A stretch of DNA of 64,000 bases from Owenia fusiformis (GCA_903813345.2 CAIIXF020000001.1:2728001-2792000), one strand, 5' to 3'; shown: positions 1 through 62,370, counted from the stretch's first letter. Translations and numbers: made by a program. Notes: generated by a model not told the origin, from the sequence alone.

Positions 1-3000
1 AGTTTCTAGGACAGCAACATGTTTTCTGAAAGCATGCTCCTCCGTTGAGACATACACCTCTGTCAGGGCATTCTCTATCAGAACTAGGCGGGGTCTCCTT
101 TACTGTGCAGTTAGCTTCTGGTCTCATCCAGCCATCAAGGCACACCTTATTGCCTGTCTGACAATCACATGTGAAGTGACCATCACAATCATTCTGAGGA
201 AGACAATAACGTTCGCAACGTTGACCATAATAATTAGGTGGACATCTTTGTACGTATCTCTCACAGTTCGTTCCTTCAAAGTTCTGGCAACAGCTACATG
301 TATAGCCTCCTATTCGTGGTGTACATGTTCCACCATTAAGACAGGGTTGACTTGCGCAATAATCAATAAACGTTTCACATCGACGTCCAGTGTAATGTTC
401 ATCACAGCAACAATTACCTTTATAGCATCTACCATACAAACAAGGAGAGTCTCTTGGGCAATCGGGGTCAGCTGGTGGAGGGATGGTCTTTATTTTACAA
501 TCCACATCGGGGTTGGTGTACCCCGGCAAGCACTCCTTGGCTCCAGTGAATGGGTTACAGGTATAATGACCTCTCTCACAATCATCGGCTGCAAGACAGT
601 ACACATTGCAAGCCGGTGGGTTGTAGTAATTTGGTGGACATTGCGGATCATATGTTTCGCAATGAGTACCAGTGTAGTCCCTCAAGCAGATGCATGTGTA
701 CCCACCGACCGTTGGACTACATGTACCTCCATTTTGACAAGGTCGGCTTACGCAATAGTCTATAAATGTTCCACATCTTGCACCAGTGTAATGTGTATTG
801 CAGCAACACGTTCGTCTATAGCATCTCCCATAAATACATGGAGAGTCAGTTGGGCAATCTGGATCATTTGGTGGAGGGAGTGTTTTTACTTTGCAGTCAT
901 TTTCAGGAACTGCATATCCAGGAAGACAAACCTTCGCCCCTGTGTTTGGATCACATGTATAATGGCCTCTGTCACAATCATCTGCAGCAAGACAGTAAAC
1001 ATTGCAAGCTGGTGGGTTGTAGTAATTGGGAGGACATTGCGGATCATATGTTTCACACCATCTCCCTGTGTAGTCTCTTGGACATGTACACGTAAACCCT
1101 CCAACAGTGGGATTGCAAGTCCCACCATTTTGGCATGGACGACTGACACAATAATCTATAAATGTTTCACATCTAACTCCAGTGTAATGTTCATTACAGC
1201 AACATGCTCGTCTGTAGCATCTTCCATAAACACATGGAGAGTCAGTTGGACAATCTGGATCAGTTGGTGGAGGGATTGTTTTTACTTTACAATCATTTTC
1301 AGGAACTGCATACCCAGGTAGACAAACCTTCGCTCCTGTGTTTGGATCACATGTATAATGGCCTCTGTCACAATCATCTGCAGCAAAACAGTACACATTA
1401 CACGCTGGTGGGTTGTAGTAATTGGGAGGACATTGCGGATCATATGTTTCACAATGTGTACCCGTGTAGTCCCTTAAGCAAGTGCATGTGTATCCACCTA
1501 CCATTGGATTACACGTACCTCCATTTTGACAAGGCTGACTTACACAATAGTCAATAAATGTTTCACATCTTACACCAGTGTAATGTTCATTACAGCAACA
1601 CGACTGTCTGTAGCATCTTCCATAAACACATGGAGAGTCAGTTGGGCAATCTGGATCAGTTGGTGGAGGAATAGTTTTGAGTTTACAATCATTTTCAGGT
1701 ACTGCATATCCAGGTAAACAAACCTTGGCTCCTGTGTTTGGGTCGCAAGTATAATGGCCTCTATCACAATCATCTGCGGCAAGACAGTATACATTGCAAG
1801 CAGGTGGATTGTAGTAATTTGGGGGACATTGCGGGTCATATGTTTCACAATGAGTGCCTGTGTAGTCCCTCAAACATGTACATGTGTAACCACCAACGAT
1901 AGGGTTGCACGTTCCGCCATTTAAACATGGTTGACTTGTACAGTAGTTGATGAACGTTTCACATCTAGTGCCAGTGTAGTGCTCGTTGCAACAACATCCA
2001 CGTCTGTAGCATCTTCCATATAGACACGGCGAGTCAGTTGGACAATCTGGATCCGACGGAGGTGGAAGAGTTTTGAGTTTACAATCGTTTTCAGGCACAG
2101 CATATCCAGGTAAACAAACCTTCGCTCCCGTGTTGGGATCACAAGTATAATGCCCTCTATCACAGTCATCTGCAGCAAGGCAGTACACATTGCAAGCTGG
2201 TGGGTTGTAGTAATTTGGAGGACATTGCGGATCATATGTTTCACAATGTGTACCAGTGTAGTCCCTCAAACATATGCATGTGTAACCACCTACCATTGGA
2301 TTACACGTGCCTCCATTCAAACAAGGTTGGCTGACACAATAGTCTATAAAGGTCTCGCATCTTACACCAGTGTAATGTTCATTACAGCAACACGCTCGTC
2401 TGTAGCATCTTCCATAAACACAAGGAGAGTCAGTTGGACAATCTGGATCATTCGGTGGAGGTAGTGTTTTTACTTTGCAGTCATTTTCAGGTACTGCATA
2501 TCCAGGTAGACAAACCTTCGCCCCTGTGTTTGGATCACATGTATAATGCCCTCTATCACAATCATCTGCGGCAAGACAGTACACATTACATGCAGGGGGA
2601 TTGTAATAATTTGGAGGACATTGTGGATCATATGTTTCGCAATGAGTACCAGTATAGTCCCTCAAGCAAGTGCATGTATACCCACCTACCATTGGATTAC
2701 ATGTGCCTCCATTTTGACAAGGTCGGCTTACGCAATAGTCAATAAATGTTTCACATCTTACACCAGTGTAATGTTCATTACAGCAACATGCTCGTCTGTA
2801 GCATCTTCCATAAACACAAGGAGTATCAGTTGGGCAATCTGGATCAGTTGGCGGGGGAACTGTTTTGAGTTTACAATCATTTTCAGGAACTGCATACCCT
2901 GGAAGACAAACCTTCGCCCCCGTGTTTGGATCACATGTATAATGCCCCCTATCACAATCATCTGCTGCAAGGCAGTACACGTTGCAAGCAGGTGGATTGT

Positions 3001-6000
3001 AATAATTCGGAGGACACTGGGGATCATATGTTTCACACCATCTCCCTGTGTAGTCTCTTGGACATGTACATGTAAACCCTCCAACAATGGGATTGCAAGT
3101 TCCACCATTTTGGCATGGACGACTGACGCAATAATCTATAAAGGTTTCACATCTAACACCTGTGTAATGTTCATTACAGCAACATGCCCGTCTGTAGCAC
3201 CTTCCATAAATACATGGAGAATCAGTTGGACAATCTGGATCCGATGGAGGTGGAAGAGTTTTGATTTTACAATCGTTTTCAGGTATAGCATACCCAGGTA
3301 GGCAAACTTTCGCTCCTGTGTTGGGATCACATGTATAATGGCCTCTGTCACAATCATCCGCAGCAAGACAGTAAACATTGCAAGCAGGTGGATTGTAGTA
3401 ATTTGGAGGGCATTGCGGATCATATGTTTCGCAATGAGTACCAGTGTAGTCCCTCAAGCAAGTGCATGTGTACCCACCTACCATTGGATTACATGTGCCT
3501 CCATTTTGACAAGGTCGGCTTACGCAATAGTCAATAAATGTTTCACATCTTCGACCAGTGTAATGTTCATTGCAGCAACACGACTGTCTGTAGCATCTTC
3601 CATAAACACAAGGAGAGTCAGTTGGGCAATCTGGATCATTTGGTGGAGGAATTGTTTTGAGTTTACAATCATTTTCTGGAACTGCATATCCAGGAAGACA
3701 CACCTTTGCCCCTGTGTTGGGATCACATGTATAATGCCCTCTATCACAATCATCTGCTGCAAGACAATACACATTGCAAGCAGGTGGATTGTAATAATTT
3801 GGAGGACATTGCGGATCATATGTTTCACAATGTGTACCCGTGTAGTCCCTCAAGCAAGTGCATGTGTACCCACCTACAAGTGGATTGCACGTGCCTCCAT
3901 TCAAACAAGGTTGGCTGACACAATAGTCTATAAAAGTCTCGCATCTTACACCAGTGTAATGTTCATTACAACAACACCCTCGTCTGTAGCATCTTCCATA
4001 AACACATGGAGAGTCAATTGGGCAATCTGGATCATTTGGTGGAGGGAGTGTTTTTACTTTGCAGTCATTTTCAGGCACTGCATATCCAGGAAGACAAACC
4101 TTCGCTCCTGTGTTGGGATCACATGTATAATGGCCTCTGTCACAATCATCCGCAGCAAGACAGTAAACATTGCAAGCAGGGGGATTGTAATAATTTGGAG
4201 GACATTGTGGAGCATATGTTTCGCAATGAGTACCAGTGTAGTCCCTCAAACATATGCATGTGTAACCACCGACCATTGGATTGCACGTGCCTCCATTCAA
4301 ACAAGGTTGGCTGATACAATAGTCTATAAAAGTCTCGCATCTCACACCAGTGTAATGTTCATTACAGCAACACGCTCGTCTGTAGCATCTCCCATAGACG
4401 CAGGGAGAATCAATCGGGCAATCTGGATCATTTGGTGGAGGTAGTGTTTTTATTTTACAATCGTTTTCAGGTACAGCATATCCAGGTAAACAAACCTTCG
4501 CCCCTGTGTTTGGATCACAAGTATAATGCCCTCTATCACAATCATCCGCGGCAAGACAGTACACATTGCAAGCAGGTGGATTGTAGTAATTTGGAGGGCA
4601 TTGCGGATTATATGTTTCACACCATCTTCCTGTGTAGTCTCTTGGACATGTACACGTAAACCCTCCAACAATGGGATTGCAAGTTCCACCATTTTGGCAT
4701 GGACGACTGACGCAGTAATCAATAAATGTTTCACATCTAACACCCGTGTAATGTTCATTACAACAACACGACCGTCTCCAGCATCTTCCATAAACACAGG
4801 GAGAGTCAATTGGGCAGTCTGGATCATTTGGTGGAGGGAGTGTTTTTATTTTACAATCATTTTCAGGAACTGCATATCCAGGAAGACATACCTTTGCTCC
4901 TGTGTTGGGATCACATGTATAATGGCCTCTTTCACAATCGTCTGCCGCAAGACAGAACACGTTGCAAGCTGGAGGATTATAGTAATTTGGAGGGCATCTC
5001 GGAATTTCTGTCTCACAGTTCAGACCGGTGTGAGTTGGTGGACAGATGCACTGGTAACTGTCTATCAGATCTCTACATGTTCCCCCATTTCTGCAAGGCT
5101 GACTATCACACACCAATATTCTACAGTCGCAAAGTCTTCCGGTCCAACCACTTTCGCAACAGCACCTTCCAGCAAAGCAGCTTCCTCTTTGACAAACGCC
5201 ATCTCTTGGGCATTCTGGGTCATTAGGTTTTGGTATGATCTTTACCTTGCAGTCTAAGTCAGGTCTAGTCCATCCACTACGGCAAATTTTAGCTCCGCTT
5301 GAAGGATCACATGTGTAAAAGCCACTAATGCAATCGTTCCTTTCCATGCAATATACACTACATCCCGGACCATAATAGTTTGGAGGACATCTGTTGATAG
5401 GTATCTCACAGTTTGTACCGGTCCAGTCGGGCTGACAAAAGCATTGGTATCTGTTGCCAACATTTGTGTTTCGACATACTCCACCATTTAGACAAGGATT
5501 ACCACCGGAACAACCAAGAATGATTTCTTCACAATACATTCCAGTCCAGCCCGGGTTGCACACACATCGTTGGTTCACACATGTACCATTTATACAATCA
5601 CCACTTATAGGACAGTTCTGCTTTATAGGAACCTGAACAGTACAGTTTGTTTCCGGTTCCGCAAAGCCATTTCGACATACCTTTTCTCCGGTGATTGGAT
5701 GACATAGGTAGTGACCTAACTTCTTGTCATCGACAGGTTTGCAGTAAACTTCGCATGATGGTCCGAAATGGTGCTTCTCGCAGTTTGGAATCCACTCGGC
5801 TGGTGACAATTGATCCCCAACAGCATCGATAACATCGGGGACGTCGAAGCCCATATCAACATCCGGGGATTCCACCACACCGGCATTTGCCTATTAAAAA
5901 TAACTTGGTTGAAATTTCATAATCGCATATTCCCCTTTCAATAACATCAATTTGCAAGAATTGTATTGGAACGGTCTCAGAAAAAAGTTTTGGTGATGTA

Positions 6001-8993: not shown

Positions 8994-9829
8994 TTAACCA
9001 AGGCCTTTTTGAAAATTTAGGTTTTTAGTACTTATTTCCAAATGCGGACTTTTGGTTCAATGTAACACATGTAAATAGTTTAATTCATGTATGTGTATGA
9101 TAACATATCAAGTGGTCATTTTCTGCATACCAACGTCGCACTTTACTTCCCCTTGACGTGTGGCCTCTGTGTTGATTGAAATATTCAAAAGCAACTAAGC
9201 TAAACAAATATTTATTTGAACCTAATCGTTGCTGTTTAGTTCATTTCTTTGTTATTACCTCTAAGCACACCAACTGTAGAATCTTGTGTCCTCTTTGTGA
9301 AAATGTGTTATCGTAATGTTATATATAAAAGGAAAACCACTTTCTTTACACCAGTCATAAGTCAACAGCTCATTGGAGTAAAACCATTTTACCTTGGTTT
9401 AGGTAAGTAGCTGACTGAGAGAACCATATAACTAAGAAAAGCTTTTTGGTTCTAAATCAAATGTCTTGACAAGAGCAATGATGCTGATACTTGTCACTAC
9501 AATACAAATGTCATCGAAACGGGAATTTAACTTACTGTATGTAGTATTTAAAATTGAAACAAATCTATTTAGGCTAAAATAGTTTTTTCAAGAACCATTG
9601 ATGTTGCGTCGAATTTGGCTTCGAATTACTTTTACGAGGATTATGTTTTGCTCGTTTTATATTCAATTTCTCATCTATTATTTCGTACAACAATGAAGCC
9701 AAATGACCGATATAAGTAAACAGAGATCAGTATGAAGCATGACAGCATTAATTATTTGTTTTTCAGTTGATCTTATTGTGATCGCGATACTTTAAGAAAT
9801 CATTTAAATCGAAGAAACTCTTAGAGCGC

Positions 9830-11322
9830 ATGCATAGATTGGAGTTGGATTATAAAATGGGGCCACGAGATTCAAGTCCATCTCCGACCAATAGTCCAAG
9901 GCAGAGGTCGGACTCCATCAAGGAACGCATAAGGGCAAGCCAAGCAGGAATTGAGGAGCTAAGGTTGCTAAGAAATAGCCAAGAAGCTTTGTTTATGGAG
10001 GTTCGAGACAAGATAATGGCGATGGGTAGCCCAAGGAAAATGCAGTCCTTGACGGACGGAGATTTCTCCGCAAGAAGACGGGCTTATTCTGATGGCGAAA
10101 CTGCGAATCTAATTATAGCCCAGGTATTTGTATAATTCATTCATTAAGTTTAAAATCAAAATGTAAAGCAATAATGAAAACTACAAACTCGAGTCTTGCA
10201 TCACGCATTTGGATCCAGTCATCAAAATCTCCAGAAATGTGCGGTATTTAAATTAACAAAACAATCTGGCAATGTACATTACATGTTTAGCCATTTGTTC
10301 AGTTTCCTTTTAGTTTCTGTTTTTAGTTGTAAATAGTTAATTGAATTAAAAAAATCATTCGATGTTTTTAGCAGCCTGCATTCAAAAGATGACCTTCAAA
10401 ACTTAGGGGCTTAGCAAATATTTGAATACTGAATTCATATAGTTAACAATAACCATCCCCGGGGCGCCCAAGACTGGCAATTAAATATTGATTTGCAATA
10501 ACAAGTCGAAATATTCTTTTGTAGAAAGCGGCACTGAAAAATCTCAAAAACAAACAGAATATCGAGCCCAAGAATGCTTGGGCCTCAACGCCAAGAAGAC
10601 GTTCAGCGAGTGTAACAAACACGACATATCAACGTAACAAGCATGAGACACTCTATTCTCCAAACAGGAAGTTACAATTCGAGTACCCAAGCCCTATGCA
10701 TGCAGTACTCCAGCAGTGGGACACTGCAGTTACAGGTGATGGAGACCCCAGCCCTGATGCTGAAAAATCAGACGTTCGCAAATCTTCTAAAGCTACTCCC
10801 TCTCCTTGCACCTTCAAATCTAAAACTGTTCAAACATTAAGTACAAAACAATCAGAAGAATTCGATAAGAGTCATACCATGTGCACAATGCGATCTCATC
10901 CAGAGGGACAGCATCGCGATCAAAGTGCAGATTCAATGAACGATTCAGTGAATGATCTTGATTTGTCAATGTCTACATCCCCAATGACAATTGGAAGCTG
11001 TGAAATCTTAGCGGAAGTGGTTGAAGAAGCGTATCGTAAAGACATTTGTGACCATAATGAGACAGGTGTAGCTAAAAAATACCCGACACCACCAGACACA
11101 ATTCAGAACAAATCAGGGGAAGGAAAAGTTTTCGATGACACAAATGGATATAATTGTTTTAACCAAAATAGGTTGTTGTTTTACAAGAACTCTGGTACTC
11201 TAGCCAATAATTCCCTGGAAAGACTAAGGAGACTCAAGCCAAATAAAACACGTCCTGGTTCTGGTGACCGGACAATTCCAGGGATGAGCTCACTTCGAGT
11301 AGGTCCCGATGCCAACGTATAA
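9830..11322 (+). CDS. Dact/Dapper (Frodo)-like protein, 363 aa, 2 coding exons
   Basis: Exon 9830-10123 (CAG|GTATTT, phase 0) joins exon 10525-11322 (tttgtAG|AAA), in frame with ORF 10696-11322. KERIRASQAGIEELRLLRNSQEAL matches the Dact N-terminal motif (vertebrate RERxEATLAGLxELxxLRQRQELL), and FEYPSPMHAVLQQ matches the Dact YRYPSPLHAVAxQ motif. The protein ends in Val (DANV). A 5'UTR acceptor (ttttcAG) lies at ~9767. Confidence 0.72.
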
Positions 11323-11446
11323 TTTTACAAATACTTGCAATAGATGCATGTTTATATAGAGTAAATGTGTGTATTATATAGTTAATTTGTCTTGTGTATT
11401 TTATTAAGTGAACAGTAACACGCTAGTTTTACTCATTAAAGCCTTA

Positions 11447-11630
11447 GCTTGTATTTGCGAATGCAACTATAACGCCTGTCGGCTACCGGATTAACCTACT
11501 TTTTTTTACTGGAAACTCATTTAAATATGAATAGTACCTGCCACTATTCCATTTATATTTCAATGGGTTGGTCATAAAATACTAGGTTAATCCGGTAGCC
11601 GACAGTTAGTTGCATTCGCGAATAAGGTTA
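11447..11630. mobile_element. Small foldback element/MITE
   Basis: Arm gcgaatgcaacta...ctgtcggctaccggattaaccta (11457-11498) is reverse-complementary to taggttaatccggtagccgacagttagttgcattcgc (11583-11619). Confidence 0.7.
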
Positions 11631-12217
11631 GTCACATTTGCTACGGCGACCGTACGGTCTATCATTTCTGCATTCAGTAACATTTCTACGCTCGGCTTAG
11701 CAATTCTGAGGTCAAATAATTTAGCAGTCACATTTGCTATAGCAACTGTACGGTGTATTTTGATTTTGAGGATACAAAACCTACGGTTGCCATACGGCTG
11801 ATAAATAATGACGTGCGGTCAACGTAGGGCGGTCCTACGACGGTAATAGTTTTCTTGACAAAATCCAAGGTAGTCGCTAGGCAGCCTGTGGTTCACAAAG
11901 GTCAGTTCAAACCGATGAACTCCAACGGCAGCCGCAAGTCGACCGTACGCCCAACGTGCAGCCACTGTGGAACCTTTCTACTGTCTAGCTACGGCCTTTT
12001 AATTTCTACGGTGACCGCAGAAATGAAAAAAGTTAAACCTCCAAGTCATGATTTCAACGGCGAGCCTGGGTGGCCTGTAAAAAATTGGATACGCCGTACA
12101 GAGACCGCAATGCGACCGCAGTTTTCCTACGCTCGTCGTAGAAATCTACTGATTTCAAGGAACTACAGTCGATGCATGGTCGACGAACGGTCGCCGTAGA
12201 GCAAATGTGACATGGGT
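11631..12217. mobile_element. GC-rich non-autonomous TIR element (possibly PIF/Harbinger-like)
   Basis: Left end gtcacatttgctacggcgaccgtacg and right end cgaacggtcgccgtagagcaaatgtgac are inverted. A second left-TIR copy lies at ~11727. The interior is CpG-rich against the AT-rich background. Confidence 0.65.
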
Positions 12218-13257: not shown

Positions 13258-16200
13258 ATGAGTCGTATTTATGATAATAAGCCGCTATCATCTCTTCCTG
13301 TAGAGAACCATAACTGGGGAACATCATGGGATAAACAAAAAGTGAAGACAAAGTGAGTACAATTTAGCTTTGATGATTTAGTCTACTTTTAATTTCTGTT
13401 TTCAGTTTTTTCTATAAAGGACGATTCTCGGTTTGGAGAACGAAGTTCATCAATCTAGATGAGCATTATCCCTGCTTCGGACAAATTTGATTTTTTTACA
13501 TAATATAGATTTGAATGTTCTCTTTTGAATAGTCATAATTTAATTTGGGTAATATTTCTAGATTTTTCTCAAAAAAATATTAGCGCAGTACACTGATGAA
13601 CTTCTTTCCCCAAATCGAGACTTGTATTTTATTAAAATCGGTCTAATTGAGCGTTATCCCTGCTCCAGACCAATTTGATATTTTTACATCTTGTAGATTT
13701 AAATGTCCTCTTTTGAATATTCATAGTTTAATTTGGGTAATATTTCTATATTTTTCATGAAAAAAAATATTAGCTCAGGAGACTGTTCTCCAAACCGAGA
13801 ATCGTCCTTTCTGAAATAGTGGTGACCACTGACTTAGACCCTAAGCTCATTCTCAAGACAGATACTATACATGAAAGGGAGTGTGCTTGATTCAATGCCC
13901 CTTACGGGAACCCAACCCATGATCCTCCACCCACAAGTCAGACATTCTACCCCTGAGCATCTGTATACGAGTCATGTTGTAATCATAAAATTTGAAATCA
14001 AATGTTCACCATTTTTCCACATCACAATTTGAATTGCGAGTTTTGGTCTTATTACCTCACCGAAAATTCCAAAACAAGCATGAAGTGATCAATGTATTAG
14101 TTCACATCTTCTAGATCGCTAACTTCGAATTTACAGCCAGTTACTAATGTTAGACAATAACGACATTTCCTCCAGTTTTCGAATATCACCATTTTTCTTG
14201 GAACTGTTTATTTTGATTTTAGACGAAATCCTTACGAAATCATGCAATATCTCATCAAGGAGCCCAGCCAGTTCCATTTTTAATTCATGATTTATTTATT
14301 TGGCGATTTTTAAATTATTTAATAAATCTAAAACACGCCGGTCAGCTTTTTTCAAATGGTTCATGGTGTTCCAGATAAAATAACTTCAAGCCAAGAATAG
14401 GCTAGAGACTCGAGTAAAGCTACATTACACTACACTACATTTCAGCCGTGTTAATTTTGAGGCAACATGCTTTGAAATCGAGTATAAATTGGCATACAAA
14501 CTTCAAAGTACAAAAAAACACAATTTGTCATTCAAACCACAAACAATCGAGTAAGTTTTGTTTCTAAAATATGAAAAAAATTTTGACTGCTCAAATAAAC
14601 TGATTAAACTGGCTCTGGCTTGAAACCTAACAGACTGTACACAATTTATAAGCTGTAAACAGCAATTATTCCATATGTACTTAGGAACCATTCATCACTG
14701 CATATTGAATTTTTATTTGACAGAGATGGAGGAGCTATAATTGAAGGGACCATAGAAAAGAGATCAAAACATTCCATTCACGATACAGTGCAAAATAAGG
14801 TATGTGTTACCATGGAAATTGATACCTACTGAGGTTTAATCATATGGGTAATAAGCTTGAAATGTATTTGTGACATAGACATTGTTGTTTTTGTGATTTG
14901 TTTGACCATTGACACCATTTTGATTTAATATTCAGGTGAGATACCTGGTGCTGCATGTAAAGATATCAAGGGCCCACAAAAGGCAGTATGATGACAAAGG
15001 AAATGAAGTGGAACCAAATTTTAGTGAAACACAAAAAGTCAGAACTGGATATCTTCATTCCTCTTATAGTAAGTGCACTATGTCTCTACAGTACAGAAGA
15101 ACATCCTATATGTACTTTGTCTCATATTACAGTAAACTTGAGAGGAAGGGATGAAATGCATCAGCATAGTACAGTGAATCCTTTAAAGTGGAGTACCTCT
15201 AGAAGTGGAACAGTTTTCAGAGTCCCAAGACCAACTGACTTAATGTTAAATGATTATGATTATTAATGTGGAACACCTTCAAAGTGGAATACTTTTAGGT
15301 ATCAAAGGTATTCCACTTTGACAGGTTTCACTGTAATTACTAGCCCTCTGGGCCACAATAATTATTTATCGCAGGCAATGCTATTCTATTTCAGAGACAG
15401 AGGGAAAGGGTGTTTCAGACAAACTGACCAATGAGGAAACAAGATCACTGATTGATTCCCCTGAGATAACATCCCTAACCTCCAAGCATGCCCAGCCAGA
15501 ACTTGCTGCTCTCTGGATGGAGGAGAATGACAGCATGGAACTGGAGAATGGTGACTCTGTCAGGGTGAAGACATATGGAGGAGGACCCTTTATAGGTATA
15601 AGTAATAACTATAAACTACTAAACTGAGATGTTTGTATGGATTTACAAGTTACCATTTACAAAGCCAAACAATTTGTTGTCATATGAATCGGTGATGATG
15701 GTCAATGCTGGTTATGACTGTTTATAGATGGCGCCATTGCCCTGGGTTATATTTGTCATTTATAACACATTACAAAATGTGAAAAATACATTGTATCATC
15801 ATCAATAAGAATTTGGTATGCAATTAAAATAGACTAGTTAATCGAAATTTTAGTGATCAAGTATTTGATGGTATACAATGCAAGACCTGGCATCTGTTCA
15901 TATCTCCCATTTTGTTACAATTTTTAAGTGGTTATTATTGTTTACTTGCCCATATTCCAAGGCTACGGCTAATTATGTCACCACCACCAAAAGTGGTGAC
16001 ATATTGTTATGGTCTCCGTTTTTTTTGCGACGGCGGTTGGTGGTTGGCGTCCGGCGGTTGGTGGTTGGCGTCCGGCGGTTGGCGTCTGTAACAATTTCTT
16101 ACAACTTCCTATAACTTAACAAATACTGTTTAGACTGACTTCAATTTTTTCTAAATCATCTACATGTTCTCAGAAGTTCAAATCTGACTTTAGATTTGAC

Positions 16201-26931: not shown

Positions 26932-62370
<35,439 letters not shown>

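Follow-up and report, generated by a model that had tools for sequence, protein, structure and literature searches.

The locus at 9830-11322 of the window, by which we mean the whole stretch of 64,000 nucleotides of Owenia fusiformis DNA that was analysed, is a genuine, transcribed, two-exon gene of this annelid, and its product, a protein of ~354-363 amino acids, gives a weak two-site match to the Pfam Dapper profile. No other family gives this protein a better signal, and the match, though real, lies below the threshold of the family. The Dact/Dapper/Frodo proteins are Dishevelled-binding adaptors of Wnt and TGF-beta signalling in chordates. Judging from the sequence, we lean slightly towards the view that the Owenia protein is a divergent relative of these adaptors that would have kept only their N-terminal module, with a putative motif 1-like helix near the protein start and a candidate YPSPxHAV-type motif ~100 residues further on.

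A frame scan of the sequence gives two stop-to-stop frames, 9782-10135 and 10525-11322, both on the + strand. The preliminary description had put a Dact-like motif into the first of these and the string YPSPMHAV into the second, and had proposed that splicing 10123 to 10525 joins them in a protein of 363 aa. Both stretches do lie in these frames, and the gene is built as follows (window coordinates):

9830-10123, + strand: exon 1 as annotated CDS, 294 nt, that is 98 codons from ATG 9830
9844-10123, + strand: exon 1 as seen in RNA, with its 5' end near 9844-9846, so that ATG 9830 lies upstream of it
10124-10524, + strand: intron of 401 nt, GT..AG, phase 0, between Q98 and K99
10525-11322, + strand: coding portion of exon 2, 265 codons followed by TAA

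Read in frame, exons 1 and 2 give 363 aa with 100% identity to the database protein P0001 (363 aa), whose record, tied to a contig of 62 Mb, reads 'unnamed protein product [Owenia fusiformis]' and has no Pfam domain on it. This identity settles that the host is a protostome, which the preliminary description had left conditional. It had also allowed for an invertebrate homologue being annotated already; the record of this protein is unnamed and devoid of a Pfam domain.

Raw reads of two stranded RNA-seq runs labelled with this species (X17 and X18) were mapped over 9000-12200. The reads of both runs all point in a single direction, which corresponds to + strand RNA for the usual stranded libraries. 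The 401-nt skip occurs in 20 reads (11 starts) of X17 and in 23 reads (17 starts) of X18, and is also present in one 806-nt contig of X13, which, together with the GT..AG borders, bears out the proposed splice. RNA depth is ~20-37 across the exons versus 0-1 across the intron. At the 3' side the transcript extends to about 11371-11460, an X13 contig ending at 11371, and ATTAAA is present at 11435-11440. No junction leaving exon 2 was found in the RNA mapped over 9000-12200, and this, taken together with the drop in depth after 11353 and the ATTAAA site, indicates that the gene consists of two exons.

The annotated start fares less well than the splice. The 5' edge of the RNA is sharp near 9844-9846: in X17, 8 molecules end at 9844 versus a depth of 10, and the X13 contig has its end at 9846. 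Moreover, position 9853 is A in 10 of 10 X17 reads and in 4 of 5 X18 reads, which converts codon 8 from TAT to the stop codon TAA. Given the coverage edge near 9844 and this stop allele, ATG 9830 is probably not used, and the start codon is probably ATG 9857-9859 (M10). The 363-aa protein of the preliminary description thus stands as a match to the database entry, while the real product is probably 354 aa long; residues are numbered here from ATG 9830 throughout. The sequence ATTTAAAT is located at 9802-9809, 35-44 nt 5' of the observed RNA 5' end, and an AG at 9843-9844 makes an upstream or trans-spliced leader exon possible.

Other elements in the window were also recorded. Directly past the 3' end of the gene, at 11452-11624, lies a MITE-like element with nested terminal inverted repeats of 18 nt (11452-11469 / 11607-11624, 94%) and 30 nt (11476-11505 / 11576-11605, 93%). 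Its summed contig depth in X1 is ~21,000 versus ~24 nearby, with many loose ends, which identifies it as a very high-copy repeat; both of its strands are transcribed. On the - strand, an uninterrupted frame of 1963 aa (2-5890) runs off the window end; it is made up of tandem units, near-identical and ~146 aa long, that each combine a DSL domain with EGF repeats (Pfam DSL E 1.5e-26, 5 stretches in the first 630 aa). As an intron-free array of Delta/Serrate-ligand domains it is unusual in its length. Two exons of a gene for the Arp2/3 inhibitor Arpin, which the preliminary description had put forward for identifying the species, are found at 14924-15627 (+; PF10574 E 3.9e-19 and 5.4e-14), and a corin-like or enteropeptidase-like gene at 35869-62370 (+), with Fz at 35869-36378, many LDL-receptor class A (LDLa) units and trypsin exons at 61543-62370. 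At 41876-43747, a 39-aa LDLa unit is repeated ~17 times, almost identically and in open frames, as would result from a recent expansion in tandem or from a collapse in the assembly. A single-exon sulfotransferase ORF of 427 aa (38264-39547, -; PF00685 E 3.8e-10) is located between the Fz exon and this array, on the opposite strand, and seems to sit inside an intron of the corin-like gene. The DSL/EGF gene, Arpin and the Fz-LDLa-trypsin gene show no link to the Dact loci in the available text of PMC4236578, in which the neighbour of the lancelet dact gene is RPA2.

The protein itself carries the following features, the motif 1-like stretch beginning with ERIRASQAGIEELRLLRNSQEAL (residues 32-54, nt 9923-9991, frame 9782-10135):

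9923-9997, + strand: motif 1-like stretch ERIRASQAGIEELRLLRNSQEALFM, residues 32-56, which the Pfam Dapper alignment places on profile positions 1-25
10594-10611, + strand: basic/serine stretch RRRSAS, residues 122-127, upstream of YPSPMHAV
10684-10707, + strand: YPSPMHAV, residues 152-159, in frame 10525-11322
10801-11319, + strand: C-terminal half, residues 191-363, predicted to be disordered except for helix 307-333, with no family match, ending in PDANV

YPSPMHAV agrees at 7 of 8 positions with YPSPLHAV, which we take to be the corresponding vertebrate Dact string; a full-text search for this vertebrate string returned only papers on PIPKI-gamma/talin and integrin/talin, and none on Dact. 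Its composition makes RRRSAS a candidate phosphorylation site of the basophilic-kinase type. By inspection, the only heptad-spaced leucines are L47 and L54, and the residues at a/d positions (L44, L47, L54, V58 and M65) describe an amphipathic helix and no zipper. The weak match to the leucine zipper in the preliminary description is therefore reduced to these two leucines, a 5-6x zipper being absent, whereas the C-terminal tail is as it had been described: the protein terminates in PDANV and has DANV in place of MTTV.

The family signal comes from the Pfam Dapper profile (PF15268), which has a length of 817 positions and a gathering cutoff of 27 bits. The following matches were obtained:

Exon 1 (residues 1-98): E 0.0072, 15.7 bits, one stretch, in which residues 32-72 align with positions 1-37 of the 817 in the profile; the sole family found
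Residues 26-75 (50 aa): Dapper E 0.0035, 16.7 bits; second match DUF7613, E 0.11, 12.8 bits
Residues 26-170 (both motifs, a fragment picked after the motifs were seen): Dapper E 5.2e-05, 22.8 bits, two stretches
Whole protein: Dapper E 0.056, 12.8 bits, two stretches

PF15268 was the top family in each scan of a sequence containing motif 1, and no non-Dact family scored better there, in line with the assignment first proposed. It should be noted that none of the Dapper scores reaches the gathering cutoff of 27 bits (best 22.8, whole protein 12.8). The Pfam scan gave no match for residues 129-181 or 99-190, each of which contains YPSPMHAV, and no Dapper match at E<=10 for residues 191-363. The first positions of the profile align close to the N-terminus and within exon 1, where chordate motif 1 is also located, and this supports a relation to Dact.

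The presence of a second matching stretch follows from the way in which the scores change with length. Extending the motif 1 fragment from 50 to 98 aa lowers the score by 1 bit (from 16.7 to 15.7), as the HMMER length model predicts, and at 145 aa motif 1 alone would be expected to score ~15 bits, the longer sequence costing ~1.5 bits. Yet once residues 76-170 are joined to motif 1, the score climbs from 16.7 to 22.8 bits and two stretches are counted instead of one. This gain of 6 bits, obtained despite the length cost and the penalty for a second local hit in a profile of 817 positions, implies a second, separately matching stretch within residues 76-170, which shows up with the addition of residues 99-170 to exon 1. 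YPSPMHAV, the sole candidate, is probably this stretch, and a collinear order of both stretches on the profile is putative. Alone, the second stretch would contribute ~7 bits, which is below the HMMER filters and explains the blank scans of the fragments containing YPSPMHAV. The chance that such a second stretch appears within 95 residues, for one pre-specified profile, would be ~1e-4.

Other aspects of the profile scores speak against the Dact claim. The whole-protein score is by our estimate ~7 bits under the length-based expectation; a composition correction would be a guess at the cause, and we count the shortfall against the claim. The motif 1 helix also matches DUF7613, an unrelated helical family, at E 0.11, from which we conclude that its helical composition earns part of the score. 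An example of a spurious sub-threshold match is given by an LDL-receptor repeat ORF in the window, which hits L-rhamnose isomerase at E 1.4e-4 owing to a repeat effect.

An AF2 model computed without an alignment has a mean pLDDT of 45.2 and predicts helices at residues 23-64, 79-85, 89-109, 263-267 and 307-333, with disorder elsewhere. Motif 1 is inside helix 23-64, and pLDDT reaches 73-80 over residues 31-60, the sole confident part of the model, compared with <50 over residues 191-363. As modelled, the protein is mostly intrinsically disordered. A confident helix at 23-64 with disorder elsewhere is how an adaptor built of motifs in disorder is expected to look, and the model therefore lends support to the proposed relation. 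A homodimer prediction for residues 20-115, run without controls, scored 0.03 and 0.01 versus a mark of 0.32, values that speak neither for nor against self-association.

The distribution of polymorphisms along the coding sequence is uneven. At least 21 coding SNPs are present, the 21 listed positions being part of a longer list; 5 are synonymous and 16 protein-changing, one of the latter being the codon 8 stop and two sharing a codon. Among the SNPs listed, the remaining 15 changing and 5 synonymous ones give an overall pN/pS of ~0.84. Codons 17-66 and 95-173 hold 0 changing and 3 synonymous SNPs among those listed, and the remaining codons past codon 8 hold 15 changing and 2 synonymous ones (Fisher test computed by hand with post hoc boundaries, p ~0.009); residues 191-363 account for 9 of the 15 changing SNPs listed in the protein body. 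The parts that bear the motifs thus look constrained while the remaining sequence drifts. Indels were also seen: a 6-nt insertion after 10963, in frame, in 9 of 26 and 8 of 22 reads; a 3-nt deletion at 11087, which keeps the frame; and a 23-nt insertion after 11298 in one X1 contig, which shifts the frame and replaces the last 7 codons. This contig of 1676 nt retains the intron and has several other indels; it is probably DNA or unspliced RNA, and has the appearance of a divergent haplotype whose C-terminal tail differs. The tail looks unconstrained, which makes a PDZ ligand there unlikely.

Searches for relatives returned the protein itself or nothing of use. An exhaustive phmmer search of 1.84 billion representatives gave only self at E<=0.001. 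Word-index searches gave 1 of 305 candidates with exon 2 and 1 of 191 with residues 20-175 against proteins of similar length, which was self in both cases; for residues 24-70, compared with longer proteins, 0 of 5 candidates came out at E<=10. Since E<=10 is out of reach for a short motif in a set of 5.8 billion sequences, the blank results are hardly informative on chordate Dacts. In the ESM Atlas, the best values were 0.83 for the whole protein and 0.76 for residues 22-165, both below the 0.9 lead level, and no Dapper cluster was present among the neighbours. A sequence search of the PDB gave a de novo protein at E 0.15 and a Pol protein at E 1.1, both meaningless.

The likeness to Dact might be due to chance, the protein being an orphan or a very fast-evolving, disordered Owenia protein in which an amphipathic helix rich in E, R, L and Q, of a kind that would fit any helical profile in part, happens to be accompanied by a short proline-rich stretch. 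We regard this as a distinct possibility, though one on the less probable side. Relatives were found in no species searched, the ESM Atlas offers no Dapper neighbour, the whole-protein Dapper match is at E 0.056 with all scores under the cutoff, and the helix also matches DUF7613; polymorphism is near neutral overall, and the C-terminal tail is altered in one haplotype contig, all of which is in keeping with coincidence. In addition, the candidate came from a very large scan, from which a few coincidences this strong are expected. However, chance would have to place two separate stretches on one profile with a library-corrected E of 5.2e-05 over residues 26-170, the second of them at an estimated ~1e-4 for 95 residues; it would have to let the start of the profile meet the N-terminal region in exon 1, as in Dact; and it leaves aside that, among the SNPs listed, none of those changing amino acids falls in the motif-bearing segments. 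If the likeness is due to chance, the gene is one more unannotated disordered orphan.

Convergence of short linear motifs would produce the likeness without common descent, similar docking motifs having evolved for the same conserved partner, so that a Dact-like module would be possible all the same. Two motifs that lie ~100 residues apart in the protein and match the profile of the same family are hard to obtain in this way, and the second, which shares 7 of 8 positions with the string that we take to be that of vertebrates, exceeds convergent motifs in their typical length; we therefore consider convergence improbable. It gains something from the remainder of the protein showing no likeness to the profile, and from the fact that both the Owenia protein and Dact, as the latter is portrayed in the available text of PMC4236578, are disordered scaffolds whose conservation is confined to short motifs. 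The locus might also be a transcribed non-coding locus or an annotation artefact that makes no real protein, and the high pN/pS, the absence of homologues and the lack of RNA coverage at the annotated start could be read in this way. This is very improbable indeed, since a frame of 354-363 codons stays open and in phase through the splice junction although the DNA is AT-rich, two runs show stranded and spliced expression, and of the three CDS indels two keep the frame and the third, of 23 nt, alters the last 7 codons only.

Returning to a divergent Dact relative as the reading that we prefer, the protein would consist of an N-terminal helical module (residues 23-64 and 89-109) followed by short constrained motifs in a fast-evolving linker. 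It has no classical leucine zipper, and no counterpart of the conserved C-terminal region or of the PDZ-binding tail. It may act as a cytoplasmic scaffold whose amphipathic N-terminal helix and short motifs dock partners. By analogy with chordate Dact, these partners might be Dishevelled or Tcf-type proteins, contacted via the N-terminal half, and the PDZ domain of Dishevelled would not be engaged through the C-terminus. We infer homology, a role in Wnt signalling and the identity of the binding partner alike, in part by analogy, and binding to Dishevelled is putative.

Dact is treated as a chordate innovation that had a part in adapting planar-cell-polarity signalling to vertebrate convergent extension, which is the rationale given in the available text of PMC11897371, a Nat Commun paper of 2025 that still calls Dact1 chordate-specific. 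A search of the full-text literature yielded no report of a non-chordate Dact, one apparent hit being due to an author named Dapper. Support for a pre-chordate Dact comes from one species and ~35 aligned residues, and such an origin is plausible on this sequence evidence. We hold it to be an evenly balanced proposition that a short ancestral Dact, made of the motif 1 helix and a YPSPxHAV-type docking motif, was present in the bilaterian ancestor and has survived in the slowly evolving Owenia; that the chordate or vertebrate stem later gained the zipper, the Vangl-binding region and the Dishevelled PDZ ligand; and that the gene was lost or became unrecognisable in most protostomes. If true, the family would date from the bilaterian ancestor, the gene would have been lost repeatedly or have diverged to an extreme degree in other invertebrates, and the ancestral core would be motif 1 plus the central motif, the Dishevelled PDZ ligand being a later addition. 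It would also provide a testable handle on the original function of Dact.

As far as the available text goes, Schubert et al. 2014 (PMC4236578) found Dact solely in vertebrates and Branchiostoma, in a survey that included no annelid genome and in which Aplysia was the sole lophotrochozoan genome, complemented by a search of protostome ESTs. The features of Dact given there are motif 1, which lies in the 'centre of exon 1' and is a putative nuclear export signal; a 5-6x leucine zipper for homo- and heterodimerisation, which is reduced in Dact3 and absent in Dact4; central motifs (3c, 4b, 5a-c); a conserved C-terminus, whose motifs 11a-g comprise a serine-rich Vangl-binding domain; and a K-L/V-MTTV tail. 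A motif of the YPSPLHAV type would be one of the central motifs, which are part of the N-terminal half. The Owenia protein would share with Dact the N-terminal match (profile positions 1-25 or 1-37) and a second matching stretch ~100 residues downstream, the location of motif 1 in exon 1, and an architecture of a helical N-terminus followed by long disorder with short motifs. It differs in being about half the length of Dact or less (363 aa), in having two heptad leucines (L47 and L54) instead of a 5-6x zipper, in ending in PDANV instead of K-L/V-MTTV, and in having two exons, whereas most vertebrate Dact genes are described with four and that of Branchiostoma with three. Nothing in it matches the conserved 200 C-terminal amino acids of Dact, which include the Vangl-binding region.

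Two members of the family come closest to this reduced form, according to the portions of Schubert et al. 2014 that describe them. The dact gene of Branchiostoma floridae, the closest outgroup Dact and the sole non-vertebrate one reported there, is very divergent and, like the Owenia protein, has no recognisable PDZ-binding motif; motif 1 has been retained in it along with several others from the N-terminal half, and its likeness to the Owenia protein is one by description. However, it encodes ~1000 aa (73 + 58 + 872) with a 5x zipper and the C-terminal motifs 8b and 11e-g, none of which is seen in the Owenia protein. Dact4 of gnathostomes, the 'anti-Dact', is also reduced, having kept motif 1 and central motifs and lost the zipper and the PDZ-binding domain, but it is a clear family member with motifs 2d-f, 3a-c, 4b, 5a, 5c, 6, 10 and partial 11a-c, and its likeness to the Owenia protein is one of architecture and not of orthology. 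Since the Branchiostoma protein does without the PDZ motif, and Dact4 without both the zipper and the PDZ motif, the absence of these elements does not disqualify the Owenia protein as a relative of Dact.
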